32,000 nucleotides of DNA, from positions 1,500,001 through 1,532,000 of the forward strand of contig NC_020304.1 in the NCBI RefSeq assembly GCF_000341395.1, in the 5' to 3' direction. Position numbers and translations under genes: made by a program. The notes under the pieces are model-generated. The model ran no database searches, was not told the origin of the DNA, and saw nothing but the letters and a program-made list of their open reading frames with translations. This DNA is from Desulfocapsa sulfexigens DSM 10523. Its GTDB lineage: Bacteria > Desulfobacterota > Desulfobulbia > Desulfobulbales > Desulfocapsaceae. Positions within the stretch are counted from its first letter, which is position 1; every line of letters starts with the position of its first letter. Positions 1,672-29,839 of this stretch are shown here, one piece after another.

Positions 1672-2706
1672 TTAAGCTGCTTTGTCCAGTACCTCCTTTG
1701 GAGTAAATTTCTTTTGGCTTTTATCAACCGCCAGCATGTATGCCACCAGTTTCCGTGCAACGGCAAGAGTCGCTCTGTTGCGGTTGCCTTTTTTTAGCTC
1801 TCGTTCATGCACTTCAGCTAATTGAGGGTTCCAGTGCGGCGCCAGTTTGGCAGCCTCAATCAGTACGGTCTGTAAATGTTTATTCCGTTTCTTGGATAGC
1901 GGTCCTCGAATCTCTTTCCCTGCTGATTCTTTCTGTGCGCTACATAGTCCACAGTAACTGACCGCCTGGTTGATACGGCCAAATCGATAAACATCTCCGA
2001 TTTCAAGCACCCAGGTAAGAGCTGTTACCTCACCAATACCCCGGATACTCCTTAATAACTCAACTCGTTGACTGATCTGCGGATTATTGCCAAGTGCACT
2101 GATAAGTGATTTCTGCATTCTGTCAAAGAATTCCATGCTGCTTCGGCTCATCTGTAGAAGGTTGAGTACCGATTCGGGTACATATTCCAGGGTACTGAGC
2201 AGTTCCTGAAAATATTTACTCCCGTGAAGGCGTCGTTTGTTATACTCCGCTCCCACTTCCATCAAAAGGGTGGCAGTCTTGGTCTTCATCTTTGCCGCTT
2301 CTCTGACTAAAAGGTTCCGGTAACGGAGAATGCGACGTAGGTTGCGATGTTCCTCCGGGGCCATGTAGCATTCAGGGAGGAGGTTGCAGCGAAGCAAATC
2401 TGCGATCTTCTCCGCATCGGCCGCGTCATTTTTTTTCTTGGCGGCTGTTATTGCCTTGAGCATCTCAGGGTGAGCAACTTTTAGTTCCTGGGCATATGGT
2501 AGCAGGTAATCGTATATCCACCCGGTAAACAGAGTGGCTTCCATTGCACCAACCCAAGAGGTTTCTCGTTTTGCAACCCAATCAGTTAAACTGTCTCGCG
2601 TGGCTCGAATCATTCCTTGATCCACAGTAGTTCCATCAATCCGCTTTTCACAGAAACTGATAACCTTTTTGTGGATGTCAAATCCAATATAATGCATACT
2701 GTTCAT
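1672..2706 (-). CDS. IS110-family transposase/recombinase (DEDD-type)
   Basis: 344 aa. The N-terminus MHYIGFDIHKK has the first catalytic Asp context typical of IS110/IS1111 DEDD transposases. The C-terminal part (IPGIG-like SIRGIGEVTALTWV, YCGLCSAQKESAGK, LSKKRNKHLQTVLIEAA) is typical of the Transposase_20 domain. Strong SD AAGGAGG lies 6 nt upstream of the ATG. Confidence 0.9.
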   Translation of the reverse strand: MNSMHYIGFDIHKKVISFCEKRIDGTTVDQGMIRATRDSLTDWVAKRETSWVGAMEATLFTGWIYDYLLPYAQELKVAHPEMLKAITAAKKKNDAADAEKIADLLRCNLLPECYMAPEEHRNLRRILRYRNLLVREAAKMKTKTATLLMEVGAEYNKRRLHGSKYFQELLSTLEYVPESVLNLLQMSRSSMEFFDRMQKSLISALGNNPQISQRVELLRSIRGIGEVTALTWVLEIGDVYRFGRINQAVSYCGLCSAQKESAGKEIRGPLSKKRNKHLQTVLIEAAKLAPHWNPQLAEVHERELKKGNRNRATLAVARKLVAYMLAVDKSQKKFTPKEVLDKAA

Positions 2707-5778: not shown

Positions 5779-7452
5779 ATGCAGAGTTTCAGGCAACCCA
5801 CGTTTTTTTTAATACTGTCCGCTGTTGTTTTGTTTTTCTATCCGTTCTATGCAATGGCAACTGATGCTAAAACTCTTGCCAGCCAGATCGACAAGGATTT
5901 ACGACAGGCAGAACGATTGATGTTCAACGGTAAAAAGACGGAGTCGGATGCATTACTGCAGCAGGTCAATGAAATGCTGGAACAACTGAAAGCTGTTGAT
6001 TCATCTTCAAAGGTAACAAGCCTGGAAAACAAATATAGCAGGACCCGAAAGGCGCTTGATAAAAAGATGGGTGGAGGAACAACAGCTCCAGCCATATCTG
6101 TTGCACCGAAGATGAGTGCGCCTGCTGTACCGGCAGTCAAGGGCGTTTCGCCATCTGGATCATCGCGTAAAGGTGGATATCAACAGCAAATGATGGAAAG
6201 AAACATCAAAAAAGCAGTTAAAGATGTTGATTACGAGATTGGTCGAGCAAGGGAAATGATGGAGCCGGACAATACGAACAGCAAATTTGGTATGGGTGCC
6301 GACGAAAAGGCAGCTAAAGGCGCAGACTACCTTGCCAAAGCAGAACAACATCTTGCAAAGACAGAACAGAAATATCCTGATTTATCACCCGAAAGTAAAG
6401 AGCAGTTTGCAGTAGCCAGAAAAAGTATTGCAGAGACTCAGGCGGCTCTGGATAGCTGGCAGAAAGAAGAACAGATAAAAACGGACAGCGCCGCCAGAGA
6501 AGCTGCGGTTACTGCAAATGCTGCGGCAGGCAAAATGGCAAAGATGAAAGATGATGCCGACTTGATTGTAGCGTTACATGAAAAATATTTTAATGCCTTT
6601 GAAAATATTCATGGTGGAACCCTTGTCCACGGTATGAAGATTGAGGAAGCTGATCAGGCTTTGGCGCTGGTGGCAAATGCAGAGAAAAGCATACCTTTGT
6701 TTGCCACGGATGTTGGTCGTCTCGCCCAGAGTTATGGTGAGACCTCCATGGATATTTACAACAAATTTCACGAAGGTGGCTACACCCTCAACAATGGTGA
6801 AGATCAGAAGATGAGCCAGTTGATTGAGGCGGTGGATAAACTGAAAAAAAGCAGGCAGGCATCGGCAGTTACCTTGGCTGGAAACGCAAAGGCACTATTG
6901 GGTGCATTTAATAATCAGTTGAATGATGCCAGGCTTCAGCGGATGGCTGAAGCTAAGAAACTTTTACTGGCTGGGCAACAGTTTGATCCGGAGAATGATC
7001 AGATTAAACAGATGCTGAATGATATTGACAGCCAGATGGAGCAGGTAGCCGATAAGATGACTGCCCAGATAGATGCGGCTAAATGGGCGGGAAATATCTC
7101 TGGATTTGCTGGGCCCGGTGATGTGACTGAGCTGGCGGCCGAAGCTAAGAAATATTTTGAGAATGACCGGGACTGGGGAGGCAAAAAAGATCGGGACATA
7201 AAAATTCTTGATGTTTGTATCCGTGGTCCCTGGAAGGTTGCGGAGACAGATGTGTTTGGACGGGTAATCAGCTGGCGACTGCCGATTCATGTCGCTGTTA
7301 CCGATGAAAAGCTGAAGCCACGAAACCTTGCCAGAGTATATGATTTATCCATTCTGGCCATGGAAGGACCTGCTGACAACGCACCTAAAAAACCACCATA
7401 TGATGGATTCTGGGTTGGAGATAGCTGGATGATGCGTCTGGATAAATTTTAA
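5779..7452 (+). CDS. Secreted protein of unknown function (signal peptide, long alpha-helical/coiled-coil-like region)
   Basis: 557 aa. SD GGAGA lies upstream. The hydrophobic N-terminus FFLILSAVVLFFYPFYAMA is followed by a charged, Ala/Lys/Glu/Gln-rich sequence. No family recognised. Confidence 0.7.
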   Translation: MQSFRQPTFFLILSAVVLFFYPFYAMATDAKTLASQIDKDLRQAERLMFNGKKTESDALLQQVNEMLEQLKAVDSSSKVTSLENKYSRTRKALDKKMGGGTTAPAISVAPKMSAPAVPAVKGVSPSGSSRKGGYQQQMMERNIKKAVKDVDYEIGRAREMMEPDNTNSKFGMGADEKAAKGADYLAKAEQHLAKTEQKYPDLSPESKEQFAVARKSIAETQAALDSWQKEEQIKTDSAAREAAVTANAAAGKMAKMKDDADLIVALHEKYFNAFENIHGGTLVHGMKIEEADQALALVANAEKSIPLFATDVGRLAQSYGETSMDIYNKFHEGGYTLNNGEDQKMSQLIEAVDKLKKSRQASAVTLAGNAKALLGAFNNQLNDARLQRMAEAKKLLLAGQQFDPENDQIKQMLNDIDSQMEQVADKMTAQIDAAKWAGNISGFAGPGDVTELAAEAKKYFENDRDWGGKKDRDIKILDVCIRGPWKVAETDVFGRVISWRLPIHVAVTDEKLKPRNLARVYDLSILAMEGPADNAPKKPPYDGFWVGDSWMMRLDKF

Positions 7453-7465
7453 TTACATGAATGAA

Positions 7466-7643
7466 CCTGATTACCATCGAAACTCAGCTTTGCAACCCGG
7501 AGTTGTTCCGTGTCGATTATATGGGACGCCATAAACCCATCCCTGGGGGCTCTGCTGCGGCCGTCCAGGCCGCAGATGCCCATATAATCAACACGAAAAA
7601 ACTCCTCATCAGGCGGGTAGGCTGAGGATTAGTGCTAATCAGG
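7466..7643 (+). mobile_element. MITE copy 1 (178 bp)
   Basis: Terminal inverted repeats are CCTGATTACCA ... (A)GTGCTAATCAGG. Flanking 8-mers are TGAATGAA (7458-7465) and TAAATGAA (7644-7651), matching at 7 of 8. It is about 95% identical to copy 2 and about 90% to copy 3, by eye. Confidence 0.85.
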
Positions 7644-7722
7644 TAAATGAATAGAGCAGGGGAATTTGTCGGATATAATTGATGCTCTTGCTTCGGAAAA
7701 CTGTGAAAAGGAGGAGGGAGTG

Positions 7723-8915: not shown

Positions 8916-11444
8916 TCAATTTGAGTCCAGCACTTTCCGGATCGTTCTTGAAAGCTCTTTGTTATCGACCGGCTTCATCAGAAAAGCTTTGATTCCAATT
9001 GAATCTGCTTTATCTGCATCAATTCTAGAACTATAACCAGTACACATAATAATTGGAATGTCAGGTCGAATGTGAAATAATTCCCCGGCTAGTTGTTCGC
9101 CTGTCATATACGGCATTGTCTGGTCCGTGATGACAAGGACGTAGTTTTTTGACTCAGTCCTGAAATGCTCAAGAGCTTCTTTGCTGCTTGTCATGGCAGT
9201 TGCCTTATATCCAAACATTTCTAATCGCTTTTTAGTAAGGGTAGCAAGGCTGGCATCGTCATCAACAATAAGAATTTTTCCCTTGCCTGGAGGAAGAGGA
9301 CTCGTATCGACTGCCTCAACTTCTTTAACTGCCTCTTTGATTTTTGGTAAGTACAGTTTGAATGTTGTTCCCTTGCCAGGGATACTCTCAACGGTAATCA
9401 TTCCTCCATGGCTATGAACAATTCCGTGAACTACGGATAAGCCCATGCCAGAACCTTTGCCAAACTCCTTTGTTGTAAAATAGGGGTCAAAAATTCGCCC
9501 CAGAATCTCTTTTTTTATACCAGTGCCAGTATCGCTGACAACTAGCAATATGTAAGGCCCTGGTTGTAAGTTTAAGTCAGCATCCAAGTCGTCACTTGTC
9601 AAATCAACAACACTTAAATCAATACCTAAAATCCCCCCATTTTCTTCCATGGCCTGAGCTGCGTTAGTACAGAGGTTCATGAGAATTTGATGGATTTGGG
9701 TGGGGTCAGCCAATGTGTTCCCACAGGAAGGAGCGATGTTCAGTTTAATGTCAATAGTAGTGGGGATTGAGGCTCGAAGGAAATTCAAGACCTCCTTAAT
9801 TACCAGATCAATTTGTACAGGTATTTGTTTTTGTTCCCCTTGGCGACTGAAAGATAATATCTGTTTCACCAGTTCCTTCGCACGAATTCCAGCTTTTAAA
9901 ACCTCCCCAATTTGATGTTTAGCCGGGCTCCAATCCGGAATATCATTCTTTGCCATTTCGGCATAGCCGATAATAGCAGCGAGAATATTGTTGAAATCAT
10001 GTGCTATCCCTCCAGAAAGTGTTCCGATGGCTTCCATTTTTTGAGTGTGAAGAAGTTGAGCCTGGAGCTTGTTTTTTTCTTCCTCTGCTTTGGTGCGGTC
10101 TGTAATATCCAGTGTGAAGCCAGCAAGCATATTGGGTTTGTTATTTATGAATATTGGGAATTTTGTGGTTTCGTAGATCCTTCCACCAAATTCTTCAATA
10201 ACATTTACAGTCACCCCTTCCTGAAGTATTTTCTTGTCATCTTCGATCATTTTTTTTGCCAGATCAGAAGGGAACAGGTCATCCATTGATCTGCCAATGA
10301 TTTTTTCGAGTGGCATGCCCAGCAGCTGTTCATAGTTTCTGCTCAACATTAAGGAGCGAATTTCGTGATCCTTAAAAAATATATATACGGGACTGTTTTC
10401 AAGGAATAATTGGAAAATTATCTGGTTTTCATATAAAGCATCTTCGGCCTGTTTTCGTTCTTCAACTTCTTTTTGGAGGGCTTCTGTCCGTTGACGCACC
10501 AATCGATTTAACATTCTGTTCCAGATGAGAAATGCACCTACAATTAGAAGCATGACTGAAACAGTATATAATGCCATTTTTTTCAGCTCTTGTTTAGTTA
10601 TGCCTGGAGTGGTGTCTAAACGTATCCATTTGTTTTGAATGTTTTTCCGTTCTTCTGCTGTTAGTAATGACACTCCTTTCTCTAGAATACTGCTGAGTTC
10701 CGGCCAATCAGAACGGACAGCAAATCCCGATATATTAGGTGGGTCAGTTTCTCCGGCTAGTTTTAAATTGGTAATCCCTTCTGATTCGATATAGAAACTA
10801 GCTGTTGCTAAATCACCCACAAAAGCATCTGCCATTCCAAAAGAGACTTTTCTCAGGGCAGCTTTCAGGTCAGAAACCAAATCAATCTCAATGTCAGGGT
10901 GGTTATTTCGGATCAGATCCACATAGCCATAACCGGAAACCATAACAACACGCATGCCTTTAAGCATGTCTAATGTGAGCTCTTTAGTCACGGTTTTTCT
11001 GACTATAATGACAGAAGGGATTTTTAAGTACGGTGGGGGAAATAATAGATATTTCTCACGTTGGGGGGTTTTGACAACGGCATTCAGTACATCCACTTCA
11101 CGCCTTTCCATCCTGGCGAGAACATCATCCCAACTTTTGCATTTCACAACTTCAAATTGAATACCGAGTTTTTTGGTGACAAGCCGCATATAGTCAGCGC
11201 CAATACCTTGATAATTTCCAGTCTTATCGAAAAACTCTATTGGTTCAAAATTCGGGTCCGGTGCCAAACGAATCGTTGGATGTGCCTTAATCCAGGCAAT
11301 TTCTTCTTTTGTGAGTTGTGCTTGGGTTACTCCAGTTTCTGCCAGGATCAATGAGATATCTAAAATAAGAATATTAACAAATGCAATGCATAGCATTAAC
11401 GTCATTGTTGCAAATTTTAGCCAGTTATGCCCACCACTTCTCAT
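8916..11444 (-). CDS. Hybrid sensor histidine kinase with a periplasmic solute-binding (SBP family 3-like) domain, TM, PAS, HisKA, HATPase and a C-terminal receiver
   Basis: 842 aa. It has an N-terminal TM helix and a periplasmic-binding-protein-like region. After a second TM helix come a PAS-like segment, the H-box GIAHDFNNILAAI, the N/G boxes (LMNLCTNAAQAM, DTGTGI, GKGSGMGL) and a receiver domain (ILIVDDD...TDQTMPYMTG...K). Confidence 0.9.
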   Translation of the reverse strand: MRSGGHNWLKFATMTLMLCIAFVNILILDISLILAETGVTQAQLTKEEIAWIKAHPTIRLAPDPNFEPIEFFDKTGNYQGIGADYMRLVTKKLGIQFEVVKCKSWDDVLARMERREVDVLNAVVKTPQREKYLLFPPPYLKIPSVIIVRKTVTKELTLDMLKGMRVVMVSGYGYVDLIRNNHPDIEIDLVSDLKAALRKVSFGMADAFVGDLATASFYIESEGITNLKLAGETDPPNISGFAVRSDWPELSSILEKGVSLLTAEERKNIQNKWIRLDTTPGITKQELKKMALYTVSVMLLIVGAFLIWNRMLNRLVRQRTEALQKEVEERKQAEDALYENQIIFQLFLENSPVYIFFKDHEIRSLMLSRNYEQLLGMPLEKIIGRSMDDLFPSDLAKKMIEDDKKILQEGVTVNVIEEFGGRIYETTKFPIFINNKPNMLAGFTLDITDRTKAEEEKNKLQAQLLHTQKMEAIGTLSGGIAHDFNNILAAIIGYAEMAKNDIPDWSPAKHQIGEVLKAGIRAKELVKQILSFSRQGEQKQIPVQIDLVIKEVLNFLRASIPTTIDIKLNIAPSCGNTLADPTQIHQILMNLCTNAAQAMEENGGILGIDLSVVDLTSDDLDADLNLQPGPYILLVVSDTGTGIKKEILGRIFDPYFTTKEFGKGSGMGLSVVHGIVHSHGGMITVESIPGKGTTFKLYLPKIKEAVKEVEAVDTSPLPPGKGKILIVDDDASLATLTKKRLEMFGYKATAMTSSKEALEHFRTESKNYVLVITDQTMPYMTGEQLAGELFHIRPDIPIIMCTGYSSRIDADKADSIGIKAFLMKPVDNKELSRTIRKVLDSN

Positions 11445-11740: not shown

Positions 11741-11749
11741 TGTTATAAT
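11741..11749 (+). promoter_or_regulatory. Extended -10 promoter element TGTTATAAT
   Basis: It matches TGnTATAAT exactly. It sits 4 nt upstream of MITE copy 2 and overlaps that copy's left target-site duplication. No convincing -35 element. Confidence 0.45.
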
Positions 11750-11753
11750 GATT

Positions 11754-11930
11754 CCTGATTACCATCGAAACTCAGCTTTGCAACCTGGAGTTGTTTCGTG
11801 TCGATTATATGGGACGCCATAAACCCATCCCTGGGGCTCTGCTGCGGCCGTCCAGGCCGCAGATGCCCATATAATCAACACGAACCAACTCCTCCTCAGA
11901 CGGGTAGGCTGAGGATTAGTGGTAATCAGG
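11754..11930 (+). mobile_element. MITE copy 2 (177 bp)
   Basis: Terminal repeats CCTGATTACCA / TGGTAATCAGG are perfect. Flanking 8-mers TAATGATT (11746-11753) and TAATGATT (11931-11938) are identical. Confidence 0.9.
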
Positions 11931-12037
11931 TAATGATTTGCTGATGCTTACCATCCAAGCTCTATCCCATTTGTTGAAGATAAATGTGAATCTTTCTTTG
12001 ACTATTGGGATTTTCTTTATGAAAAAGGTGAAAGTTT

Positions 12038-12766
12038 ATGCAGAGCCATGATGAAATTGAAGAGCAGAAAAACTCTATCTATCTGTGTGCTCCCGTTAAT
12101 GCACTGGTTGAGGGTATCTTTGAAGAAAACATTCATCTTGCAGAAGTACTTAGGCATGGTGATTTCGGACTTGGTACTTTTGATGATCTGGATGGAGAGA
12201 TGCTTATCCTCGACGGACATTGCTACCAGATAAACTCCGCCGGGAAAGTAACTGAAGTTGATGGACAAGTGTTGACCCCCTTCGCTTCGGTGACTTTTTA
12301 TAAACCGGAGAACTTTTATGAGATCAACAAGGAAACTCCATTTGATGATTTTTTAAAACAGCTCAATAGCTTTATGCCATCACCGAATCTGTTCTATGCC
12401 GTGCGTATTGAGGGTGAGTTTTCTCACATCAAAGCACGCTCCGTTCCAAAGCAGGCTAATTATCATCCGCTTACAGATATAGTTAATGAGCAGATTGTCT
12501 TTGATTTTGATAATATCTGCGGAACCGTGGCAGGCTTTTTTACACCAGAGTTCATGTCATCATTGAGCGTCCATGGACTGCATCTGCACTTTCTCTCAGA
12601 GGACTTGCAGCACGGGGGACATATCCTTGGATGTGTGCCGCGTAAAGTGAAGATTGGGGTCCAGACAATTAACCGTTTAGAGCTTACATTGCCGATGACA
12701 AAGGATTACATGGGGTGTGATTTTCACAGGGATATTAACAGGGATCTGGATAAGGTTGAAAAGTAA
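12038..12766 (+). CDS. budA: Alpha-acetolactate decarboxylase
   Basis: 242 aa. The N-terminal pattern SIYLCAPVNALVEGIFE...GDFGLGTFDDLDGEMLILDG and the HGLHLHFLS metal-binding His motif are characteristic of AlsD/BudA. Confidence 0.85.
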   Translation: MQSHDEIEEQKNSIYLCAPVNALVEGIFEENIHLAEVLRHGDFGLGTFDDLDGEMLILDGHCYQINSAGKVTEVDGQVLTPFASVTFYKPENFYEINKETPFDDFLKQLNSFMPSPNLFYAVRIEGEFSHIKARSVPKQANYHPLTDIVNEQIVFDFDNICGTVAGFFTPEFMSSLSVHGLHLHFLSEDLQHGGHILGCVPRKVKIGVQTINRLELTLPMTKDYMGCDFHRDINRDLDKVEK

Positions 12767-13690: not shown

Positions 13691-13796
13691 GCTGAGAAAG
13701 GGTGTTTATTGCGTCGCCCGTGTGATCGGTTATATGTTGTGTCTTAATGATTCGCTGATCGCTGCTGTTAATAATAACAGTGATTCAGTGTTCAAT

Positions 13797-13837
13797 AAAA
13801 AAAACCTCCAGGCTATCGATGAGATACCCTGAAGGTT
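13797..13837 (-). terminator. Rho-independent terminator of cassette A
   Basis: On the minus-strand RNA, AACCUUCAGG - 15-nt loop - CCUGGAGGUU forms a 10-bp stem with one G-U pair. U8 follows immediately. Confidence 0.8.
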
Positions 13838-13878
13838 CTAATGCGGGACAACATCCCAAAGAATTGTTTACTTTTTTC

Positions 13879-14178
13879 CTACTTTGAAGCTGTAACCTTT
13901 GCAGGGGCCTTGTTTACATATTTAAAGAATACGGGGAAGGCGACAAAGAAGGCTACACAGAGCAGGTATTCAATACCTTTGATATGAGTGTAGTAGTCAA
14001 CCAGAGTATGCAGAGGCTTTACCATTCCTATTGCCACCATATACTGTCCGGCAAGCTCACTTACTGACCAACCAACCGATGAAAGAGCACTGGTAAGGGC
14101 TGCGCCAACCCAGAGACACATGATTGAACCGGCTGCGAGAAGTATTCTTGATCCTGTTTTTGATGTATTTTGTTTCAT
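13879..14178 (-). CDS. Small membrane protein (99 aa, about 3 TM), family unknown
   Basis: SD AAGGA lies upstream. There are hydrophobic segments ILLAAGSIMCLWVGAALTSAL and YLLCVAFFVAFPVFF. It is second in a two-gene unit bounded by a sigma54-type promoter and a terminator. The copy at 19205-19504 encodes an identical protein. Confidence 0.7.
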   Translation of the reverse strand: MKQNTSKTGSRILLAAGSIMCLWVGAALTSALSSVGWSVSELAGQYMVAIGMVKPLHTLVDYYTHIKGIEYLLCVAFFVAFPVFFKYVNKAPAKVTASK

Positions 14179-14221
14179 GGTAGTGTCCTTATCTGTATAT
14201 GTTAATTTTAGAAAGAGTGTA

Positions 14222-14416
14222 TCAGCCGATAACTGCGGTCAGGTATCCTTTAACAACATTCAAATGTCCCATGCTTATCATTGCGCTTGCAAGACAGGCA
14301 AATCCCCAGATTCCAACAAGGGCAGCCATGGTCATTCCAGCACCAAGTGCAAATGAAGAAGTTTCGTATCCAGCTTTAACTTGAGTAGCAGTTGTGGTTT
14401 GAGTGTTTGTAGTCAT
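14222..14416 (-). CDS. Small membrane protein (64 aa, Thr-rich N-terminus, Gly/Ala-rich TM segment), family unknown
   Basis: Strong SD GGAGG lies 7 nt upstream of the ATG. It contains FALGAGMTMAALVGIWGFACLASAMI. The partner copy at 19548-19742 differs by one residue, His51 versus Pro51. Confidence 0.7.
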   Translation of the reverse strand: MTTNTQTTTATQVKAGYETSSFALGAGMTMAALVGIWGFACLASAMISMGHLNVVKGYLTAVIG

Positions 14417-14474
14417 GGTGTCCTCCGTATGGGTTTGATCTAGCTAAGTTTTTCTTTTCTTTGCCCTCTATGTA

Positions 14475-14489
14475 GCAGCAACCATGCCA
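14475..14489 (-). promoter_or_regulatory. Sigma54-type (-24/-12) promoter of cassette A
   Basis: The minus strand reads TGGCAT-GGTTG-CTGC against consensus TGGCAC-N5-TTGC. The invariant GG and GC have correct spacing. It lies about 60-70 nt upstream of the ATG at 14416. Confidence 0.6.
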
Positions 14490-14781
14490 GTTTTTGTTTT
14501 TCTTGCTGTGCTTTCACGAAAAACCAGGTAACACATTGGTACAACTCTGTATTTATGGAGAATGCTGTTGGAGTTTTCTTGCGACACATATGTGCCCTGG
14601 CAGTGTGGCAAAACTCGGAACTGTAGTTTTAGGAAGAGAATGTGTGGCTTGTGTTCTACGGAAGTGTTGCAGGTCTTGCAGATAGGTGTGGAATCAGAGA
14701 ATAGAAGAAGTAAGCACTGGCAAGCCCAATAACAGTTGCCTCCCCTTTGTTCAGCTTTGCCCAGAGCCCCGCAAGTTCTGT

Positions 14782-15010: not shown

Positions 15011-16057
15011 ATGCTATTTAAGGTCTTTCCCAGAGATCAGTTGGAGATTCTCTATGACATTTTGGCAGGCCATCATTTGGTTGGGCCACAAATCATAGGG
15101 ACAGACCGGAATGGGCAAGAGTTATTCGCCTTTGATTATATCCACAGTTTTACAGAACTTAGAATCGACTTCACCTCCACCGTTCATTCCTTGAAATCTT
15201 TTGTCCTTCCTCCCCGGGAAAATCTTAGTTCCTTTGCCCTGGCGAACAATGACTGGGAGAAAAATGTTGATTTGGGCATATACAAGCCTCATGTTTTTTT
15301 CGGCCTGCACCCCTGTGATATAAATGCTTTGAACAAACTGGACAAGGTTTTAACGGGTCCTGTTTATCCTGACCCTTTTTACACCGGAAAGCGGAAAAAC
15401 ATGTTCATTATAGGAGTCAACTGTATTCCGCAACCCTGGTGTTTTTGTAAATCCATGGGCACAGATACTGTGCTTTCCGGTTTTGATATGTTCCTCACCG
15501 ATTTGGGCGATAAATACTTTGTCGAGATCCAGTCAGCCACAGCTTATGATATCCTTATGGAGCTACCCATTACCGAGCCCACCGATGAGGATCATCGCAG
15601 ATTCGTTCAGTTAATGGATGAGCGAAACAGTAAATTCACCTGTCAGGTGGATAACTCCGACCTGACCAAGATCCTTGACTTGGAATTCCAGTCCCCGGTC
15701 TGGCAGGAGTGGGGAAAACGATGTATGTCCTGTGGTACCTGCGCAAATGTATGCCCTACCTGCTACTGCTATGGAGTAACGGAGCATGTTGACCTCGATT
15801 TGAAAAGTGCCACCAAACAGAAACAACTTTACTCTTGTAATCTTATAGATTTTGCCATGGTCTCTGGGGGCCACAACTTCAGACCTGATAGTGCCTCCCG
15901 CCTCAAATACCGTTATTACCACAAGCACCGCGGATTCCAGGAGGCATACGAAGAAGCGCTCTGCGTAGGCTGTGGTCGCTGTGGCCAGGCGTGTCTTGCT
16001 GGAATTACGGTGCCGGAAGTTATCGACAGTGTTCGCCGACAGGAGGTTCCTAAATGA
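15011..16057 (+). CDS. Group-3b-type NiFe hydrogenase beta subunit (4Fe-4S cluster protein)
   Basis: 348 aa. It has the Cys motifs CMSCGTCANVCPTCYC and CVGCGRCGQAC. It is first in a beta-gamma-delta-alpha gene order like the Pyrococcus-type sulfhydrogenase. Confidence 0.75.
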   Translation: MLFKVFPRDQLEILYDILAGHHLVGPQIIGTDRNGQELFAFDYIHSFTELRIDFTSTVHSLKSFVLPPRENLSSFALANNDWEKNVDLGIYKPHVFFGLHPCDINALNKLDKVLTGPVYPDPFYTGKRKNMFIIGVNCIPQPWCFCKSMGTDTVLSGFDMFLTDLGDKYFVEIQSATAYDILMELPITEPTDEDHRRFVQLMDERNSKFTCQVDNSDLTKILDLEFQSPVWQEWGKRCMSCGTCANVCPTCYCYGVTEHVDLDLKSATKQKQLYSCNLIDFAMVSGGHNFRPDSASRLKYRYYHKHRGFQEAYEEALCVGCGRCGQACLAGITVPEVIDSVRRQEVPK

Positions 16058-16956
16058 ACAAGCTTGATTTTGTCGATGTCCTGCCTGCAAGACAGATTTC
16101 TACACGAAAATCAGACCTATCCAGTTTTGAATATAGCTATAGGGCGGAAATCACCAATGTCTATGGTTTGACCAACACTGAAAAACTGTATCAGATAAGG
16201 ATAGTCGATTCCGATCAACGCCATCAGTTTACCTTCAAACCCGGACAATTTGTGATGCTTGAATTGCCTGGCATTGGAGAAGGCCCCTTTTCTATTTCTT
16301 CATCCCCAACCCGCCATGGTGATCTGGAGTTGTGTATTCGGGCTGTAGGCAATTTGACTAACTTTCTCAGCAGAGTACCCCGGGGCACGCTCGTCGGCAT
16401 TAGCGGACCATTTGGCACCAGTTTCCCGGTTGAAGACATGGAAAACAGCGACCTGATCCTTATTGCCGGAGGCCTTGGGATTGTTCCTCTGCGTGCTCCA
16501 CTCTTTTCTATACTTGAAAATCGCAGTCGCTATAAGCAGATAGATATTATCTACGGTGCTCGTAATCCATCCGAACTTCTTTTCACCTATCAGTATCAGA
16601 TGTGGCGGCAGTTTGACATAAATCTGGAAATTATTGTCGACCAGGCCGACGAAAAGTGGCAAGGGCCTGTTGGTCTAATCACCGAAATTCTAAAACATCG
16701 ACTTGAAGCCGCCGGAAATAACCTGTCTAGCAACACCTATGCAATTGTTTGCGGACCACCTGTAATGTTCCATTTTGTTTGCGATATGCTGATCAACGCC
16801 CAGTTACCCATGCAAAAGATCTTTGTCTCTCTGGAACGGCGGATGCATTGCGGGCGCGGAAAATGCTGCCGATGTAACATCGGTGCGACCTATACCTGTC
16901 TCAGCGGACCGGTCTTTGATTACTGGTCGGTATTGAATATGAAGGAGGCCATCTAG
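16054..16956 (+). CDS. Hydrogenase gamma subunit, FAD/NAD(P)-binding oxidoreductase with a C-terminal 2Fe-2S Cys cluster
   Basis: 300 aa. ATGA overlap with the upstream gene. It has a ferredoxin-NADP-reductase-like pattern (GQFVMLELPG, GPFSISS, LIAGGLGIVPL, VCGPPVM) and the C-terminal motif CGRGKCCRCN...C. Confidence 0.8.
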   Translation: MNKLDFVDVLPARQISTRKSDLSSFEYSYRAEITNVYGLTNTEKLYQIRIVDSDQRHQFTFKPGQFVMLELPGIGEGPFSISSSPTRHGDLELCIRAVGNLTNFLSRVPRGTLVGISGPFGTSFPVEDMENSDLILIAGGLGIVPLRAPLFSILENRSRYKQIDIIYGARNPSELLFTYQYQMWRQFDINLEIIVDQADEKWQGPVGLITEILKHRLEAAGNNLSSNTYAIVCGPPVMFHFVCDMLINAQLPMQKIFVSLERRMHCGRGKCCRCNIGATYTCLSGPVFDYWSVLNMKEAI

Positions 16957-16963
16957 GGACACC

Positions 16964-17746
16964 ATGGAGAAAAGTAAAACGTATCTGGGAGTGGAAATAA
17001 AACGACCCAGGACCGCCTTTTTTGAGTTGTCATCCTGTGAGGGCTGCCAGTTACAGATTCTCAATAAAGAGGCCAGCCTCCTGAATTTTCTTGATCTTCT
17101 TGAGATTGTCAATTTCCGCGAAGCGATGTCCAATGGGAGCGATGATTACGAGATAGCTTTTGTGGAGGGCAGTGTAACCAGAGCCGATGAAGAAGAGAGA
17201 CTTCTGAAGATCCGGAAACAGGCAACAACTCTTGTAGCTCTCGGATCCTGTGCCTGCTTTGGCGGAGTGAACCAACTGAAAAATCGTTTTCATGACCTGG
17301 AGTGGGTAAAAAATGAGGTCTATGGGGGCCATCCCATAGAGACTCAGGAGGTAAGACCTCTGTCGGACTTTGTTATAGTTGATCTCTCAATATACGGCTG
17401 TCCAATCAAAAAAGAAGAAGTGGAAGAGATCGTCACTAATCTGGTGCTTGGTAAATCAATTGACCATCCACGCTATCCCGTCTGCATGGAATGTACGGCA
17501 AATGGCAACATCTGTCTCTTCAACCTGGGTGAACCATGCCTTGGGCCAGTAACCAGGGCTGGCTGTGATGCCTGGTGCCCAAATAACCGCATGGGTTGCT
17601 GGGGGTGCCGTGGACCTTCCGATGAGGCCAATTTCAGCCAGCTTCAGGAGATCATGGACAGCCACAACATCCCCAGGCAGGCCATGCTTGATCGACTCGA
17701 ATGTTTTGGTGGTTTCAGCAGTGCAATCAGGGAAATGGAAAAATAA
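16964..17746 (+). CDS. NiFe hydrogenase small (delta) subunit
   Basis: 260 aa. It has NuoB-like Cys motifs (SSCEGCQ, GSCACFGG) and a Cys-rich C-terminal region (CMECTANGNICLFNLGEPCLGPVTRAGCDAWCP...CWGCRGP). Confidence 0.85.
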   Translation: MEKSKTYLGVEIKRPRTAFFELSSCEGCQLQILNKEASLLNFLDLLEIVNFREAMSNGSDDYEIAFVEGSVTRADEEERLLKIRKQATTLVALGSCACFGGVNQLKNRFHDLEWVKNEVYGGHPIETQEVRPLSDFVIVDLSIYGCPIKKEEVEEIVTNLVLGKSIDHPRYPVCMECTANGNICLFNLGEPCLGPVTRAGCDAWCPNNRMGCWGCRGPSDEANFSQLQEIMDSHNIPRQAMLDRLECFGGFSSAIREMEK

Positions 17747-17757
17747 ACGAGGCGATC

Positions 17758-19038
17758 ATGGGTGAATCAATAAGCTGCGATATCAATATCAACCATCTGA
17801 CCAGAGTCGAGGGGCACGGTAACATCCGGATTCGCATTAAAAACGGGAAGGTGGAAAATGCAAGTTGGGATGTGGTGGAGACCCCACGCTTTTTTGAGGC
17901 CATTCTGGTGGGAAAACATTGGGAGAATGCGCCTATCCTTTGTGGGCGTATCTGCGGGATATGCTCCATCGGCCACACACTGGCATCCATAAGGGCTGTT
18001 GAAAATGCCTTTGCCATGGTTCCCAGTCTGCAGACTCAAAGACTCCGGCTACTGCTCAAGCATATGGAGACGTTACAAAGTCATATCCTCCACCTCTACT
18101 TCCTGGTAGCTCCTGACTTTCTTGGCACAGACAGTGTGCTCGAACTTATAAAACCTCATGGTGATGAAGTACAACGGGCGGCCAGGCTTAAGTTGCTGGC
18201 CAATGACGGTGGTGACTTGATAGGTGGCCGCAGACTCCATCCAACCAGAACCGTTGTGGGTGGCTTTACCATGCTACCCGATCGCATAAAACTGGCAACC
18301 CTCAGGCAACGTCTCCATGCTGCACTGGCCGACCTCAACAAGACAGCAGAGCTCTTTGGCTCCTTTGCCATCCCAGATTTTACCCGAGAGACCGAGTTTG
18401 TTTCCCTGAAAAGCGATGGCAATTACCCTTTTATCGGTGGACAACTGGTCTCCAGTGACGGAGTGCTCAGAGAGGAAGAGGAGTACCTGACCATGAGTAA
18501 TGAATATATGGTCAGTCATTCCACTTCTAAATGGAGCAAACTCTCAAGACCAAGCCTGGCAGTGGGTGCTCTGGCCAGGATAAATAACAACTTTGCCAGC
18601 CTTCACCCTCATGCTCAGGATATTGCCAATAATTTAGGCCTCCACCCGGTCAGTCACAACCCATTTATGAACAATGTTGCACAGCTTGTGGAATGTGTTC
18701 ATGTTGTTCAGGATTCAATTTCACTTATTGACGAGTTGCTGGGGAGTGAGTGGCAGGAGCCTCGCCAAACTGTCACACCGAGGGCAGGTGCGGGAACTGG
18801 AGCCGTGGAAGTTCCCCGGGGAATTCTCTATCACTGGTATCAGTTTGACAAGGATGGTCGAATCACCAGGGCTGATTGCGTCATCCCCACCAGTCAGAAT
18901 AACGCCAATATTCACTACGATATCATTGCTCTTGCGCAGAAACTTGCCGCCCAGGGTAAGGACGATCAGGAAATTCGTTTGCTGGCCGAGATGCTTGTCC
19001 GATCCTATGATCCCTGCATTTCCTGCTCGGTTCATTAA
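17758..19038 (+). CDS. NiFe hydrogenase large (alpha) subunit
   Basis: ATG at 17758 has GAGG about 6 nt upstream. The track start at 17701 overlaps the small-subunit gene. The N-terminal Ni-binding motif is RICGICSIGH (RxCGxCxxxH) and the C-terminal motif is DPCISCSVH (DPCxxCxxH), followed directly by the stop. Confidence 0.9.
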   Translation: MGESISCDININHLTRVEGHGNIRIRIKNGKVENASWDVVETPRFFEAILVGKHWENAPILCGRICGICSIGHTLASIRAVENAFAMVPSLQTQRLRLLLKHMETLQSHILHLYFLVAPDFLGTDSVLELIKPHGDEVQRAARLKLLANDGGDLIGGRRLHPTRTVVGGFTMLPDRIKLATLRQRLHAALADLNKTAELFGSFAIPDFTRETEFVSLKSDGNYPFIGGQLVSSDGVLREEEEYLTMSNEYMVSHSTSKWSKLSRPSLAVGALARINNNFASLHPHAQDIANNLGLHPVSHNPFMNNVAQLVECVHVVQDSISLIDELLGSEWQEPRQTVTPRAGAGTGAVEVPRGILYHWYQFDKDGRITRADCVIPTSQNNANIHYDIIALAQKLAAQGKDDQEIRLLAEMLVRSYDPCISCSVH

Positions 19039-19122
19039 TAAATTACGGTTGTGTATCCAATGCTGGCATAATTCAGACACCTGTCGATGGCGATTGTAAA
19101 TAACAGTGATTCAGTGTTCAAT

Positions 19123-19163
19123 AAAAAAAACCTCCAGGCTATCGATGAGATACCCTGAAGGTT
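19123..19163 (-). terminator. Rho-independent terminator of cassette B
   Basis: Same stem and U8 tract as at 13797-13837. Confidence 0.8.
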
Positions 19164-19204
19164 CTTATGCGGGACAACATCCCAAAGAATTGTTTACTTT
19201 TTTC

Positions 19205-19504
19205 CTACTTTGAAGCTGTAACCTTTGCAGGGGCCTTGTTTACATATTTAAAGAATACGGGGAAGGCGACAAAGAAGGCCACACAGAGCAGGTATTCAAT
19301 ACCTTTGATATGAGTGTAGTAGTCAACCAGAGTATGCAGAGGCTTTACCATTCCTATTGCCACCATATACTGTCCGGCAAGCTCACTTACTGACCAACCA
19401 ACCGATGAAAGAGCACTGGTAAGGGCTGCGCCAACCCAGAGACACATGATTGAACCGGCTGCGAGAAGTATTCTTGATCCTGTTTTTGATGTATTTTGTT
19501 TCAT
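19205..19504 (-). CDS. Small membrane protein (99 aa), duplicate of 13879-14178
   Basis: The protein is identical to copy A. There is one synonymous difference, at 19280. Confidence 0.7.
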   Translation of the reverse strand: MKQNTSKTGSRILLAAGSIMCLWVGAALTSALSSVGWSVSELAGQYMVAIGMVKPLHTLVDYYTHIKGIEYLLCVAFFVAFPVFFKYVNKAPAKVTASK

Positions 19505-19547
19505 GGTAGTGTCCTTATCTGTATATGTTAATTTTAGAAAGAGTGTA

Positions 19548-19742
19548 TCAGCCGATAACTGCGGTCAGGTATCCTTTAACAACATTCAAAGGTCCCATGC
19601 TTATCATTGCGCTTGCAAGACAGGCAAATCCCCAGATTCCAACAAGGGCAGCCATGGTCATTCCAGCACCAAGTGCAAATGAAGAAGTTTCGTATCCAGC
19701 TTTAACTTGAGTAGCAGTTGTGGTTTGAGTGTTTGTAGTCAT
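19548..19742 (-). CDS. Small membrane protein (64 aa), duplicate of 14222-14416
   Basis: It is identical to copy A except Pro51 instead of His51 (19591). Confidence 0.7.
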   Translation of the reverse strand: MTTNTQTTTATQVKAGYETSSFALGAGMTMAALVGIWGFACLASAMISMGPLNVVKGYLTAVIG

Positions 19743-19800
19743 GGTGTCCTCCGTATGGGTTTGATCTAGCTAAGTTTTTCTTTTCTTTGCCCTCTATGTA

Positions 19801-19815
19801 GCAGCAACCATGCCA
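19801..19815 (-). promoter_or_regulatory. Sigma54-type promoter of cassette B
   Basis: Identical sequence to 14475-14489. Confidence 0.6.
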
Positions 19816-20149
19816 GTTTTTGTTTTTCTTGCTGTGCTTTTGTGGAAACAAGTGCAAAGTACTGGTATAACACTGTATTTGTGAGTGGCGTTGCTGGAAA
19901 TCTCTTGCGACACTTGTGTGTTCCGGTAGTGTGGTAAAACTCGGAACTGTAGTTTTGGGACGAGAATGTGTAGTTTAAATTCTACGGTTGTGTTGCAGGT
20001 CTTGCGGATAGGTGTGGCAACGAGAAGTAATTTGTTTATTTTATTGCATTACTGTTTTTTTTAGGAAATACATTTCAGTTATCAGATCTTCGATTAGAGA
20101 ATGATTTTGATCGTCTTGAAGAATCACCTTAAACAAGGAGAAAGAAAAA

Positions 20150-24107: not shown

Positions 24108-24674
24108 TCAGCTTTTAGGTAAATAATTTTTCATGATTTCATAAATAGCAGGTCGATTTTCCCGTATCTCATCCGCGCTCAAACCTTCCAGTGAATGAGG
24201 GTATTTAAGCCAGTCTGCGGTTTCGTGTACAGTATAATCCGGTGCCTTGCCTGTCTGATTACGAGATGGCTTGTAATAGGGTACGGCAATGCGGATATCT
24301 TCAGGAGTGTTTAAGCGTAATCTGCGTTGTAATTCATTGATAATGGCTTCAACCGAGCGGCCCGTGTCAAAGACATCGTCTACAATCAAGAGCCGATCGC
24401 TGTGTTGAAGGTTTTTTACCAGATAGTTGAGTCCAAACAGCTTTATTTCACGTGTTTTATTGTCAATCCCACTGTAGGAGGAGGTACGGATTGCGATATT
24501 GTCAGATACTATGCCGTGAAAAGCCAGAAACTCCTGAACGGCGATACCTATGGGGACCCCGCCACGCCATACGGCGATGATAAACGTGGGCCGAAAGCCA
24601 CTATCAAGGATCTGACGACCAAGCTTAAAGGAATCTTCCAGCAGACCCTGGGCGGTGAGGTAGACTTTATCCAT
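24108..24674 (-). CDS. Type-I phosphoribosyltransferase (purine PRTase-like)
   Basis: 188 aa, with the PRPP-binding motif LLIVDDVFDTGRS. Confidence 0.8.
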   Translation of the reverse strand: MDKVYLTAQGLLEDSFKLGRQILDSGFRPTFIIAVWRGGVPIGIAVQEFLAFHGIVSDNIAIRTSSYSGIDNKTREIKLFGLNYLVKNLQHSDRLLIVDDVFDTGRSVEAIINELQRRLRLNTPEDIRIAVPYYKPSRNQTGKAPDYTVHETADWLKYPHSLEGLSADEIRENRPAIYEIMKNYLPKS

Positions 24675-24834
24675 TGCTAACCTTAAAGTTTTCTTATCGA
24701 AGGCTCATTCATCCTGTAACCACTGTAAATATCTATTTTATACAAGTAATGTTCTAAAAAGGGTATCTTAAAAGCCATGATTCTACTGTGTAATAACGAA
24801 CTTTTTCTGGAGAGTATTATCCAAGGGCGAATGT

Positions 24835-25407
24835 ATGAACAAAATTTTTCTTGATGAAGAAACCCTGATTCTCGATTCCTTCAAACTGGGAGTGCAGGTT
24901 TTTGAAAGCGGCTTTCGGCCCACGTTTATCGTGGGACTGTGGCGGGGAGGCAGTTCCGTTGCCATTTATGTTCAGGAATGTCTGCAGACGCTGGGGGTGG
25001 AGACAAATCATATCTCACTTCGTACATCCTATCGCGGCCAGCCCTCTTATCAGGAGGCGGTCGCAGCGGCTAATGCTGAGATAAGGGTTCACGGTACCCA
25101 GTATCTTCTTGAAAACCTCAACGCTGACGATGCGCTGCTGCTGGTAGACGATGTCTTCAGCACCGGTAAAAGTATAGAAGCAGTCATAAACCGGTTGAGC
25201 CGTCATCTGAAACGCAATATGCCCAGGGAGGTCAAGATTGCCACTCTCTGGGATAGACCTTCTTTCAGGGAATCTGAGATAGATCCGGATTTCTACCAGC
25301 ATCGAACGGAGGACTGGCTGGTTTTTCCTTACGAAATGAGTGGTCTCACAATGGATGAAATCCAGGAGCACAAACCTTTTCTTGTCCCATTCCTGCAGAA
25401 TGGTTGA
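24835..25407 (+). CDS. Type-I phosphoribosyltransferase paralogue, first gene of the kinase/cyclase operon
   Basis: 190 aa, with the PRPP motif LLLVDDVFSTGKS. It aligns with the divergent neighbour over its full length, roughly 35-45% identical by eye. Its stop, TGA at 25405-25407, overlaps the TTG at 25404 of the next ORF. Confidence 0.8.
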   Translation: MNKIFLDEETLILDSFKLGVQVFESGFRPTFIVGLWRGGSSVAIYVQECLQTLGVETNHISLRTSYRGQPSYQEAVAAANAEIRVHGTQYLLENLNADDALLLVDDVFSTGKSIEAVINRLSRHLKRNMPREVKIATLWDRPSFRESEIDPDFYQHRTEDWLVFPYEMSGLTMDEIQEHKPFLVPFLQNG

Positions 25408-28718: not shown

Positions 28719-29066
28719 GTGTTCAACAAGTATATGTCAGAAGACAATAAACATGATGTTGCGGCTGCAGTCACCGATATACAGCTTCTTCTTGCTGAGA
28801 AACGAACCTCTCTTGCTCTGATGCGTACAGGGATTGCAGTCCTGGCTCTTCCACTGTCAGTCTTGAGCTTACTGATTGCCACATCGAAGTATTATGAAGC
28901 TATAGATGTACTCTCTTTTCTTATACCATTGGCCATATTACTTTCTTTTCTGGTTGGCTTAGGGCTGTATCTTATCATTCGCTCCATTCGCCGTATGCAT
29001 CGTAATGATGCTTTGATTCATAGAATAAAGTTGAAGTATGAAGAGATTGCAGAGTATGTGGATTGA
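28719..29066 (+). CDS. DUF202 (YidH-like) small membrane protein
   Basis: 115 aa. LLAEKRTSLALMRTGIAVLAL matches the LAxERTxLAWxRT-type DUF202 signature and is followed by 2 more TM helices. The start is GTG 28719 or ATG 28734. Confidence 0.65.
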   Translation: MFNKYMSEDNKHDVAAAVTDIQLLLAEKRTSLALMRTGIAVLALPLSVLSLLIATSKYYEAIDVLSFLIPLAILLSFLVGLGLYLIIRSIRRMHRNDALIHRIKLKYEEIAEYVD

Positions 29067-29380
29067 TGATATTTCGTTCATTTTTTTTCATTCTGCTGCT
29101 GTCTCTGCTGGTTGTCCCTAAGCTCTATTCTGATGAGCTGGGTAACTGGCCAGAGGAAGTCAGCGTTTCGTCTGGTACAGTTACGATCTATCAACCTCAG
29201 GTTGAATCACTAACAGGCAACCCAGAAATCAAACCGTCACAGCAGACCAAGCTATGGCATGCATGCATTCTGGTGGTGGCGGCGGACGACGTCATTAATC
29301 GTCTTAAAAAAACTGATTACCATCGAAACTCAGTTTTGCAACCCGGAGCTGTCCCGTGTCGATTATATGGGACACTATAA
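29066..29380 (+). CDS. Short secreted ORF whose 3' end runs into MITE copy 3
   Basis: ATG 29066 overlaps the upstream TGA, and a signal-peptide-like sequence FFFILLLSLLVVPKLYS follows. From codon 83 onward the reading frame is MITE sequence. Coding status is uncertain. Confidence 0.35.
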   Translation: MIFRSFFFILLLSLLVVPKLYSDELGNWPEEVSVSSGTVTIYQPQVESLTGNPEIKPSQQTKLWHACILVVAADDVINRLKKTDYHRNSVLQPGAVPCRLYGTL

Positions 29381-29489
29381 ACCCATCCCTGGGGGCTCTG
29401 CTGCGGCCGTCCAGGCCGCAGATGCTCATATAATCAACACGAAACCACTGCTCCTCAGGCGGGTAGGCTGAGGAGCAGTGGTAATCAGG
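29312..29489 (+). mobile_element. MITE copy 3 (178 bp)
   Basis: Flanking 8-mers TTAAAAAA (29304-29311) and TTAAAAAA (29490-29497) are identical. The terminal repeats are (A)CTGATTACCA / TGGTAATCAGG. Confidence 0.9.
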
Positions 29490-29839
29490 TTAAAAAATGC
29501 AGTCTGGGGTGGGAATAGTGAAATCCGGGCTGTCTGATACGTCAAATTTATCTGATTTTTTACGATTCTATTTATTACTCTTATTGGCTTTACATACTTT
29601 CTGCTATGCGGTGCTTTCAGCACTTCTTGAGATATCAGGGTCCCCTGCCGGTGTTTGCCACAAAAAAATCTCCTTCAAACTTGCTTTATGGATTGGATTT
29701 TTCCTGCCGGAATCCGGCAAAGCATCCGATAATACTGTTTGTATATTGCTTGCTCAGATGATACGCTGACCCCTGTAAAACGAGAAAAAACCGTTTTCGA
29801 AATAAGAGCGGCGTAATTTTTTTTAATTCCCTTGTAATC

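Follow-up and report, generated by a model that had tools for sequence, protein, structure and literature searches.

Three short repeats of closely similar sequence lie within 32 kb of the genome of Desulfocapsa sulfexigens DSM 10523 (contig NC_020304.1, positions 1,500,001 to 1,532,000; this whole stretch of 32,000 nucleotides is called the window, and coordinates are given within it), and they raise the question of how such repeats were dispersed and what their interior carries. A preliminary description, made from the letters of the window alone, had regarded them as miniature inverted-repeat transposable elements (MITEs) that were inserted by a transposase into AT-rich targets. The repeats, their ends and flanking duplications, relatives bearing transposase genes, a covarying structure and an asymmetry between its strands were all observed directly, and they indicate that the repeats are very probably an IS1595-family MITE. 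The best explanation overall is likely to be a non-autonomous, IS1595-mobilised MITE that carries an independent structured module.

Copy 1 (178 bp) was located at 7466–7643, copy 2 (177 bp) at 11754–11930, and copy 3 (178 bp) at 29312–29489, all on the plus strand. Copies 2 and 3 showed 96.0 and 92.1% identity with copy 1, respectively, in agreement with the approximately 90–95% estimated by eye in the preliminary description for three plus-oriented copies at these positions. The 11-bp terminal inverted repeats CCTGATTACCA / TGGTAATCAGG were present at all six ends, with single mismatches at the right end of copy 1 (TGCTAATCAGG, a G-to-C change) and at the left end of copy 3 (ACTGATTACCA, with A rather than C as the first base). 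A search of the window for the 11-mer CCTGATTACCA with up to one mismatch gave six matches, which were exactly these six ends, compared with 0.55 in shuffled sequences. Each copy was bordered by target-site duplications of fixed length: TGAATGAA (7458–7465) and TAAATGAA (7644–7651) for copy 1, which agree at 7/8 positions, and identical octamers for copy 2 (TAATGATT at 11746–11753 and 11931–11938, 8/8) and copy 3 (TTAAAAAA at 29304–29311 and 29490–29497, 8/8), so that the 11-bp repeats and the AT-rich 8-bp duplications described earlier were both upheld. In a MAFFT alignment of the three copies (A1), the likeness started and stopped exactly at the terminal repeats, and the flanks were unrelated; because the similarity ends there, no longer conserved unit extends into the flanks, which is what the preliminary description had named as a possible refutation. 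At 177–178 bp and without a transposase open reading frame (ORF), the copies have the size expected of a MITE. A 25-codon reading frame on the minus strand, which follows GAGGAG, was considered as a small peptide and rejected, since a 1-nt deletion in copy 2 and indels at locus L004 interrupt it.

To find relatives with the same ends, we scanned a genome collection with the end pattern CCTGATTACCAYYRNWMCTCAG and obtained at least 120 loci, in Desulfocapsa, Desulfopila, Desulfofustis, Desulfosediminicola, and other Desulfobulbaceae including metagenome-assembled genomes (MAGs), and also in Photobacterium, Endozoicomonas, Kistimonas, Sansalvadorimonas, and Tolumonas. The shared ends consisted of CCTGATTACCA and an inner CTCAG. 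Among the matches listed, elements with paired inverted ends fell into two size classes, 83–530 bp and 907–1353 bp, and 27 of 40 paired elements had perfect 8-bp duplications. The larger class included the longer, transposase-bearing element that had been proposed as an object of search: loci L009, L005, L096, and L022 each combined MITE-type ends with an IS1595-family transposase gene, and all four had perfect 8-bp duplications. The elements at L005, L022, and L096 (1033–1063 bp) each encoded a protein of 315–316 amino acids with the domains PF12760 (Zn_ribbon_IS1595) and PF12762 (DDE_Tnp_IS1595); the proteins of L005 and L096 matched NCBIfam NF033547 with 180–188 bits (cut-off 75), and tblastn detected the same transposase beside the end pattern in at least 12 further loci.

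The element at L009, 1056 bp long and flanked on each side by the duplication AAAAACTT, comes from a Desulfobulbaceae MAG and resembled the MITE in the detail of both ends. The inner six bases of the MITE differ between its two ends (TCGAAA at the left end; CTAATC at the right end when read inward), and L009 showed the same asymmetry, with 22 of 23 bases of the left end in common and an identical inner right end, ACCACTAATCCTCAG. Judged by these ends, L009 is the best model for the parent element among the matches listed, and we infer that an L009-like transposase may be the actual mobiliser in this host. The transposases of the same-ended elements contained the motif E-x3-R-x2-R (EFCFRFNR). 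In ISfinder, the IS1595 subgroup is listed with ends 'CcTGATT', an 8-bp direct repeat, and the catalytic signature DDNK plus ER4R7; the ends and duplication length seen here fit that putative subgroup exactly. Direct repeats of 8 bp that are rich in AT are produced by ISApl4, an element of the IS1595 family (PMC12561309), and in Haloquadratum walsbyi a MITE of 165 bp, with a direct repeat of 8 bp, is attributed to the IS1595-family ISHwa6 (PMC3852290, Table 4). The window element resembles such IS1595-derived MITEs in its small size, in the lack of an ORF, and in having the ends of a family that makes AT-rich 8-bp duplications; it differs in its host group, the Desulfobulbaceae. Other MITE families with the same ends (L015, L018, L030, L045, L046, and L084) carried different cargo, for example very long perfect palindromes (GTAGGAGCTCGCCCCTGCGAGCG…) or GTCATTCCCGCGCAGGCGGGAATC-type hairpins. 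Whereas L024 was a plain deletion derivative in which the first codons of the transposase gene were kept, the interior of the window MITE is not a simple remnant of internal deletion and instead contains a separately conserved structured module.

A metagenome scan with the core pattern ATAAACCCATCCNTGGGGGC extended the family; the counts of MITEs and modules given from here on are those among the matches listed. There were at least 34 distinct full MITE copies with recognisable ends, showing 60–97% identity to copy 1; the metagenome samples JGI11705J14877 and JGI10211J34971 contained copies with more than 92% identity. Among the 34 listed, the 8-bp duplications were perfect in 21 and matched at 7/8 positions in five, always with different flanks, so that the terminal repeats and duplications seen in the window were retained in further copies. 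A target logo compiled from the outward flanks of 146 termini (L002–L121 and the window) had C (50%) or T (29%) at position −10 and A (74%) at −9, with CAT and CAA as the commonest triplets at −10 to −8, where −8 is the first base of the duplicated octamer. The octamer itself was AT-rich with W at both edges, and the overall preference was YA|WWNNNNWW|TR. The additional copies, their flanks, and the transposase-bearing relatives all speak in favour of the transposase-mediated insertion into AT-rich targets that had been proposed. The MITE would be mobilised in trans by an IS1595-family DDE transposase encoded outside the window, which would recognise ends of about 23 bp (CCTGATTACCA, six variable bases, and CTCAG) and insert the element into AT-rich DNA by a staggered 8-bp cut at the preferred target; repair of the stagger would then yield the 8-bp duplications.

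The interior of the element was highly structured. The whole element was predicted to fold into one long hairpin on either strand (−84 / −87 kcal/mol, z-scores −8 / −7), and its core of about 120 nt formed a three-way junction consisting of a long stem, P1, and two hairpins with (N)GGA loops on the minus strand. On that strand the order is the inner P1 stem, P3, P2/P2a, and the return strand of P1. In the window, P3 has the sequence CUGCGGCC-UGGAC-GGCCGCAG and P2/P2a the sequence GCC-CCCA-GGGA-UGGG-UUUAU-GGC, and this asymmetric apex is conserved far better than the stems. A covariance model, R1, matched the window exactly three times, each time on the minus strand (87–113 bits). The core of copy 1 (7497–7620, 113.1 bits) comprises the inner P1 stem, P3 at 7555–7575 with the loop UGGAC, and P2/P2a at 7528–7550 with the loop GGGA and a UUUAU bulge. 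The core of copy 2 (11785–11907, 102.4 bits) has P3 at 11842–11862 and P2/P2a at 11816–11837, with the 1-nt deletion falling in the G-run of P2, and that of copy 3 (29343–29466, 87.2 bits) has P3 at 29401–29421 and P2/P2a at 29374–29396, with P2 partly disrupted.

Comparison of copies showed that this structure covaries. In an alignment of 33 MITE copies (A2), compensated double changes occurred in 26 of the 52 predicted pairs, and 94.5% of cells were paired, compared with 36–45% when the partners were slid; no shuffle equalled the observed values. The P3 hairpin lies outside the search pattern, and its stem varied freely in sequence, yet the loop motif (TCC when read on the plus strand, hence GGA on the minus strand) was kept in 93 of 102 instances, or in 54 of 63 when only distinct hairpins are counted. 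Model R1 found 100 matches in the metagenome loci, some without the exact core pattern. In alignment A4, which was fitted to R1 and is biased towards it accordingly, 31 of 33 pairs were compensated, including two pairs of P2a. The loop of P3 contained GGA in 88 of 93 copies, and that of P2a contained NGGA in 96 of 98. These results indicated that the interior is a conserved, covarying structured module.

To determine the strand on which this structure is constrained, 89 distinct instances were refolded with G·U pairs disallowed, and single mismatches flanked by Watson–Crick pairs were counted. A·C mismatches, which correspond to G·U on the minus strand, numbered 85 versus 33 for G·T. When the instances were grouped into 45 clusters at 80% identity, there were 68 versus 30 distinct events, and by cluster the ratio was 25 versus 7 (p ~0.002). 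The asymmetry was restricted to the inner stem, 13–35 nt from the core, and was absent from the outer stem by the terminal repeats. An earlier form of the test on the RNAalifold structure of A2 (G·U 85 versus A·C 42) was replaced, since that structure had been predicted on the plus strand and was hence biased. As no difference between the strands would be expected of a process that acts on double-stranded or cruciform DNA, the asymmetry points to a constraint on a minus-sense RNA, and the module probably acts as RNA on the minus strand of the window, the strand of the GGA loops.

The module was also found apart from the transposon. Among the genome loci selected by their terminal repeats (L002–L101), only four (L004, L037, L031, and L059) contained it; conversely, many metagenome contigs of 43–68% GC carried the module without IS1595 ends, in unrelated gene neighbourhoods (compare L171 with L236). 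Since the module occurs without the ends and the ends without the module, the two are separable. Contig L133 carried the module three times; the flanks of these copies were unrelated, their stems were compensated and differed from one another, and their P2a variant, UAC-ACGGAC-GUA, retained the GGA loop. From this distribution, the module would appear to be an independent, evolutionarily maintained element, and the window element to be such a module captured between IS1595 ends. In the proposed mechanism, the module of about 120 nt (P1, the three-way junction, P3, and P2/P2a of the form GCC-CCCA-(N)GGA-UGGG-UUUAU-GGC) would occupy the place of the transposase gene and, once captured, would have been spread by transposition.

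Back-to-back inverted pairs of modules, 30–95 nt apart, were frequent in GC-rich metagenome contigs (L171, 2137–2421; L142, 2234–2522; L197, 112–407; L198, 2520–2797; L155, 963–1301; L156, 576–894). Owing to this inverted pairing, a transcript in either direction would hold one copy in the GGA orientation.

We then compared the module with described repeats. At gathering thresholds, Rfam 15 gave no family in the whole window or in 20 module-bearing loci, and at E values up to 10 or 1 it gave spurious snoRNA or miRNA-hairpin matches only, so that the Rfam check named in the preliminary description yielded no described RNA motif in the window. Similarly, blastn of the MITE, two GC-rich module copies, and one Shewanella copy against 72,556 plasmids gave no match, nor did the core pattern against viral contigs, and a literature string search did not find the exact core sequence. 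ERIC/IRU elements of enterobacteria are imperfect palindromes of 100–200 bp that lie in or beside transcription units, evolve with compensated changes, and can have orientation-dependent effects on mRNA fate. They show no sequence relationship to the window element, which differs from them in its clearly defined transposase family, terminal repeats, and duplications, and in an asymmetric apical core that is common to non-transposon elements.

The preliminary description had also pointed to the Desulfotalea-1 motif. This motif, a pair of hairpins that both have UCC tetraloops, was described in 2010 from 229 representatives in Desulfotalea psychrophila, Shewanella, and other taxa (PMC2864571). 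The table of that paper lists no Rfam accession for it, and a negative Rfam scan therefore cannot exclude it. The window module resembles it in being multi-copy, in occurring in the same bacterial groups, and in having two hairpins whose loops show UCC when read on one strand and GGA when read on the opposite one: the plus-strand hairpins of the window, CCCA-UCCC-UGGG and GGCC-GUCCA-GGCC, both have UCC loops. In one Shewanella row of the published alignment, the motif occupies the P3 position of a larger stem-loop. The P1 stem of this stem-loop has its counterpart in P1 of the window module, and its hairpin GCC-CUCA-GGGA-UGAG-UUAAU-GGC has its counterpart in P2/P2a, with agreement in strand. 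A profile of the module (nhmmer) matched the motif-flanking sequence of that row with E = 1.4e-8, and the predicted fold architecture was identical; in a D. psychrophila row it matched a stretch of 16 nt only (E = 0.0017). However, the window module does not match the Desulfotalea-1 consensus (GGYCGYUCYYUnRCAUCCRUGYnAYCRCGRCAUUYGYRnRUCCnUnYRC), the order and nesting of its hairpins differ from the published architecture (hairpin 1 in an outer CGY/RCG stem, AUUY, and hairpin 2), and its P3 is a single hairpin where Desulfotalea-1 has a two-hairpin domain. Thus, the lead held in that a homologous Shewanella element contains the motif, and it failed as regards consensus and architecture. We conclude that the window module falls outside Desulfotalea-1 as published and that the two belong to one broader element family.

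Two features of the published rows were noted separately. In the rRNA-linked D. psychrophila rows (PMC2864571, supplementary file 93), the annotated terminator hairpin is followed by a run of eight U only when read on the 5S rRNA strand, which is opposite to the published orientation of the motif, so the terminator does not settle the orientation of Desulfotalea-1. In the row NC_006138.1/2050051-2049588, an IS1595-type end, GCUGAGUGGUAAUCAGG, lies about 190 nt away.

The GGA loops raised the question of a protein ligand. CsrA/Rsm proteins bind GGA in hairpin loops, with the SELEX consensus RUACARGGAUGU, and the dimer bridges sites 10–63 nt apart (PMC7652899); the high-affinity form of the site is an ANGGAX hexaloop directly on a stem (PMC4005645). 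Many module copies had exact A(N)GGAX loops on the stem (CA-GGGA-UG, ACAGGAUGU, and CAUGGAUG), and the two GGA loops of the window copies are about 24 nt apart, within the range bridged by the dimer. In placing GGA loops on two hairpins, the window module resembles Csr/Rsm sponge RNAs and sites (CsrB, RsmZ, and the hcnA site) and TwoAYGGAY; its stems are much longer and more stable than those of typical CsrA sites. Neither the window nor the collected loci contained a csrA-like ORF. Several findings weigh against such a ligand. The P3 loop in the window, CC-UGGAC-GG, lacks the 5' A of ANGGAX and stands on an 8-bp GC-rich stem, which is reported to be an unfavourable context for CsrA binding (PMC7652899). 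No Rfam Csr/Rsm or TwoAYGGAY model matched, even below threshold at E up to 1 or 10. Moreover, the Shewanella relative has a UCC and a GGA loop on one strand, and therefore GGA recognition is not the sole reading; pairing between UCC and GGA loops suggests itself as an alternative to protein binding. By analogy, then, it is possible but rather doubtful that the two A(N)GGA(X)-type loops of the module bind a dimeric CsrA/Rsm-type protein or another GGA-recognising protein. The wider proposal, in which the MITE would be the vehicle for a widespread and selectively maintained RNA module, Desulfotalea-1 an elaborated branch of the same family, and the GGA strand the binding site of a dimeric CsrA/Rsm-type or other GGA factor, is unlikely to hold in all its parts.

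Other results count against an IS1595-mobilised MITE with a maintained RNA module. No transposase gene with MITE ends was present anywhere in the 32-kb window, as had been recognised earlier, and no empty site was found among the public contigs of these loci, all of which stop inside the element. Compensated changes could arise without selection, by arm-to-arm gene conversion within a palindrome. A scan of the three insertion sites for promoters and terminators found none inside the element, the orientation of copies relative to flanking ORFs was only weakly biased (52 versus 31 for the left gene and 34 versus 41 for the right gene), and a minus-strand transcript of copies 1 and 3 would run antisense to the genes beside them in the window. 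Several of these points suit an ordinary selfish MITE, whose interior would have no RNA or host function, whose fold-back form would be kept by hairpin-templated repair or arm-to-arm conversion, and whose apical core would be kept for transposition, for instance through end pairing or the binding of a host DNA-bending factor. The weak orientation bias and the lack of a promoter or terminator fit this explanation, as do the unrelated, very long perfect palindromes in same-ended MITE families, which show that fold-back interiors are general in the group, and the main stem of the MITE-only alignment, with 29 G·U versus 31 A·C pairs. The module copies without IS1595 ends, however, have unrelated flanks and differing covarying stems even on a single contig, and a module without these ends cannot be maintained through transposition by an IS1595 transposase. 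The asymmetry of the inner stem (85 versus 33; 25 versus 7 clusters) is not expected of a DNA process acting on both strands, and the loops retained GGA while the stems changed. We therefore regard a purely selfish element as somewhat unlikely.

The repeats might instead be a small-RNA gene family of the Desulfotalea-1 type, spread by duplication or recombination, to which the terminal repeats and 8-mers would be incidental. The core does resemble a described multi-copy candidate small-RNA motif, and the module stands alone as a repeat elsewhere (L133), but 26 of the 34 listed copies had flanking repeats of at least 7/8 abutting the 11-bp terminal repeats, and the same ends bound transposase-encoding elements with duplications of equal length. 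The small share of end-bearing loci that contain the module shows ends and module to be separable, and with the duplication statistics and the unconserved flanks of A1 also contradicting it, this origin is highly improbable. The extended hairpin could likewise recall a hairpin-dependent single-strand system (REP/RAYT or IS200/IS605-type), or the IS110 element of the window, whose gene (1672–2706, minus strand; PF01548 and PF02371) is the sole transposase gene there and is unrelated to the MITE; the preliminary description had noted that the IS110 element lacks such ends. REP/RAYT and IS200/IS605-type elements are characterised by sub-terminal hairpins and association with a Y1 transposase, and neither they nor IS110 elements are known to make fixed 8-bp target duplications or to have DDE-type terminal inverted repeats, whereas the window element has both; its ends are common to IS1595-family DDE elements, and the 11-mer search of the window found no copy of the MITE ends adjoining the IS110 gene. 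Mobilisation by either of these routes would be extremely surprising.

A further IS1595-family MITE would by itself be a routine addition to the catalogue, of practical use in explaining assembly breaks, in naming the transposase family, and in providing the target rule YA|WWNNNNWW|TR. The cargo makes the element more than routine: it is a three-way junction of about 120 nt in which the GGA loops are invariant, covariation is heavy, and the G·U signature is specific to one strand. The cargo matches no Rfam family, and it is connected with a candidate motif whose nature was left unsettled in 2010. If the module is a functional RNA, the family would clearly exemplify the spread of a regulatory RNA element by a DNA transposon and would provide a testable hypothesis for Desulfotalea-1. 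Were the GGA loops bound by a CsrA/Rsm-type protein or another GGA factor, transposition would distribute binding or decoy sites of a global post-transcriptional regulator across Desulfobulbaceae genomes, and if the wider proposal combining vehicle, Desulfotalea-1 branch, and GGA factor were true, the module family would form a class of structured bacterial RNA not yet described.

The insertions lie in or close to transcription units. Copy 1 begins 13 nt downstream of the stop codon of ORF 5779–7452. Copy 2 lies between two divergent genes, one for a hybrid sensor kinase (8916–11444, minus strand) and one for acetolactate decarboxylase (12038–12766, plus strand). Copy 3 lies between two plus-strand ORFs inside an apparent operon, where it has swapped the last 7 codons of ORF 29063–29380 for 22 element-encoded codons, so that the protein ends …KK-TDYHRNSVLQPGAVPCRLYGTL*. 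The last A of its right duplication is the A of the ATG of ORF 29497–29769, and the terminal CAGG of the element is now 8 nt upstream of that start codon. TATAAT strings were present in both arms of the element, with no usable −35 partner. When neighbouring proteins were looked up, the public contigs of these loci (L001 and L242–L244) all ended inside the element, as is expected and usual when a dispersed repeat is assembled from short reads.

The window contains two further duplications. A direct duplication of about 740 bp with approximately 99% identity (13773–14515 and 19099–19841, with weaker similarity past 14515) brackets a four-gene NiFe-hydrogenase-like cluster (15011–19038), and each duplicate contains the same 99-amino-acid, membrane-protein-like ORF on the minus strand (13879–14178 and 19205–19504). 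At 24108–25407, two divergent phosphoribosyltransferase-domain genes (24108–24674 on the minus strand and 24835–25407 on the plus strand) contain inverted repeats that are 74% complementary (arms 24361–24399/25128–25166 and 24559–24635/24874–24950), and the pair looks like an old inverted gene duplication.

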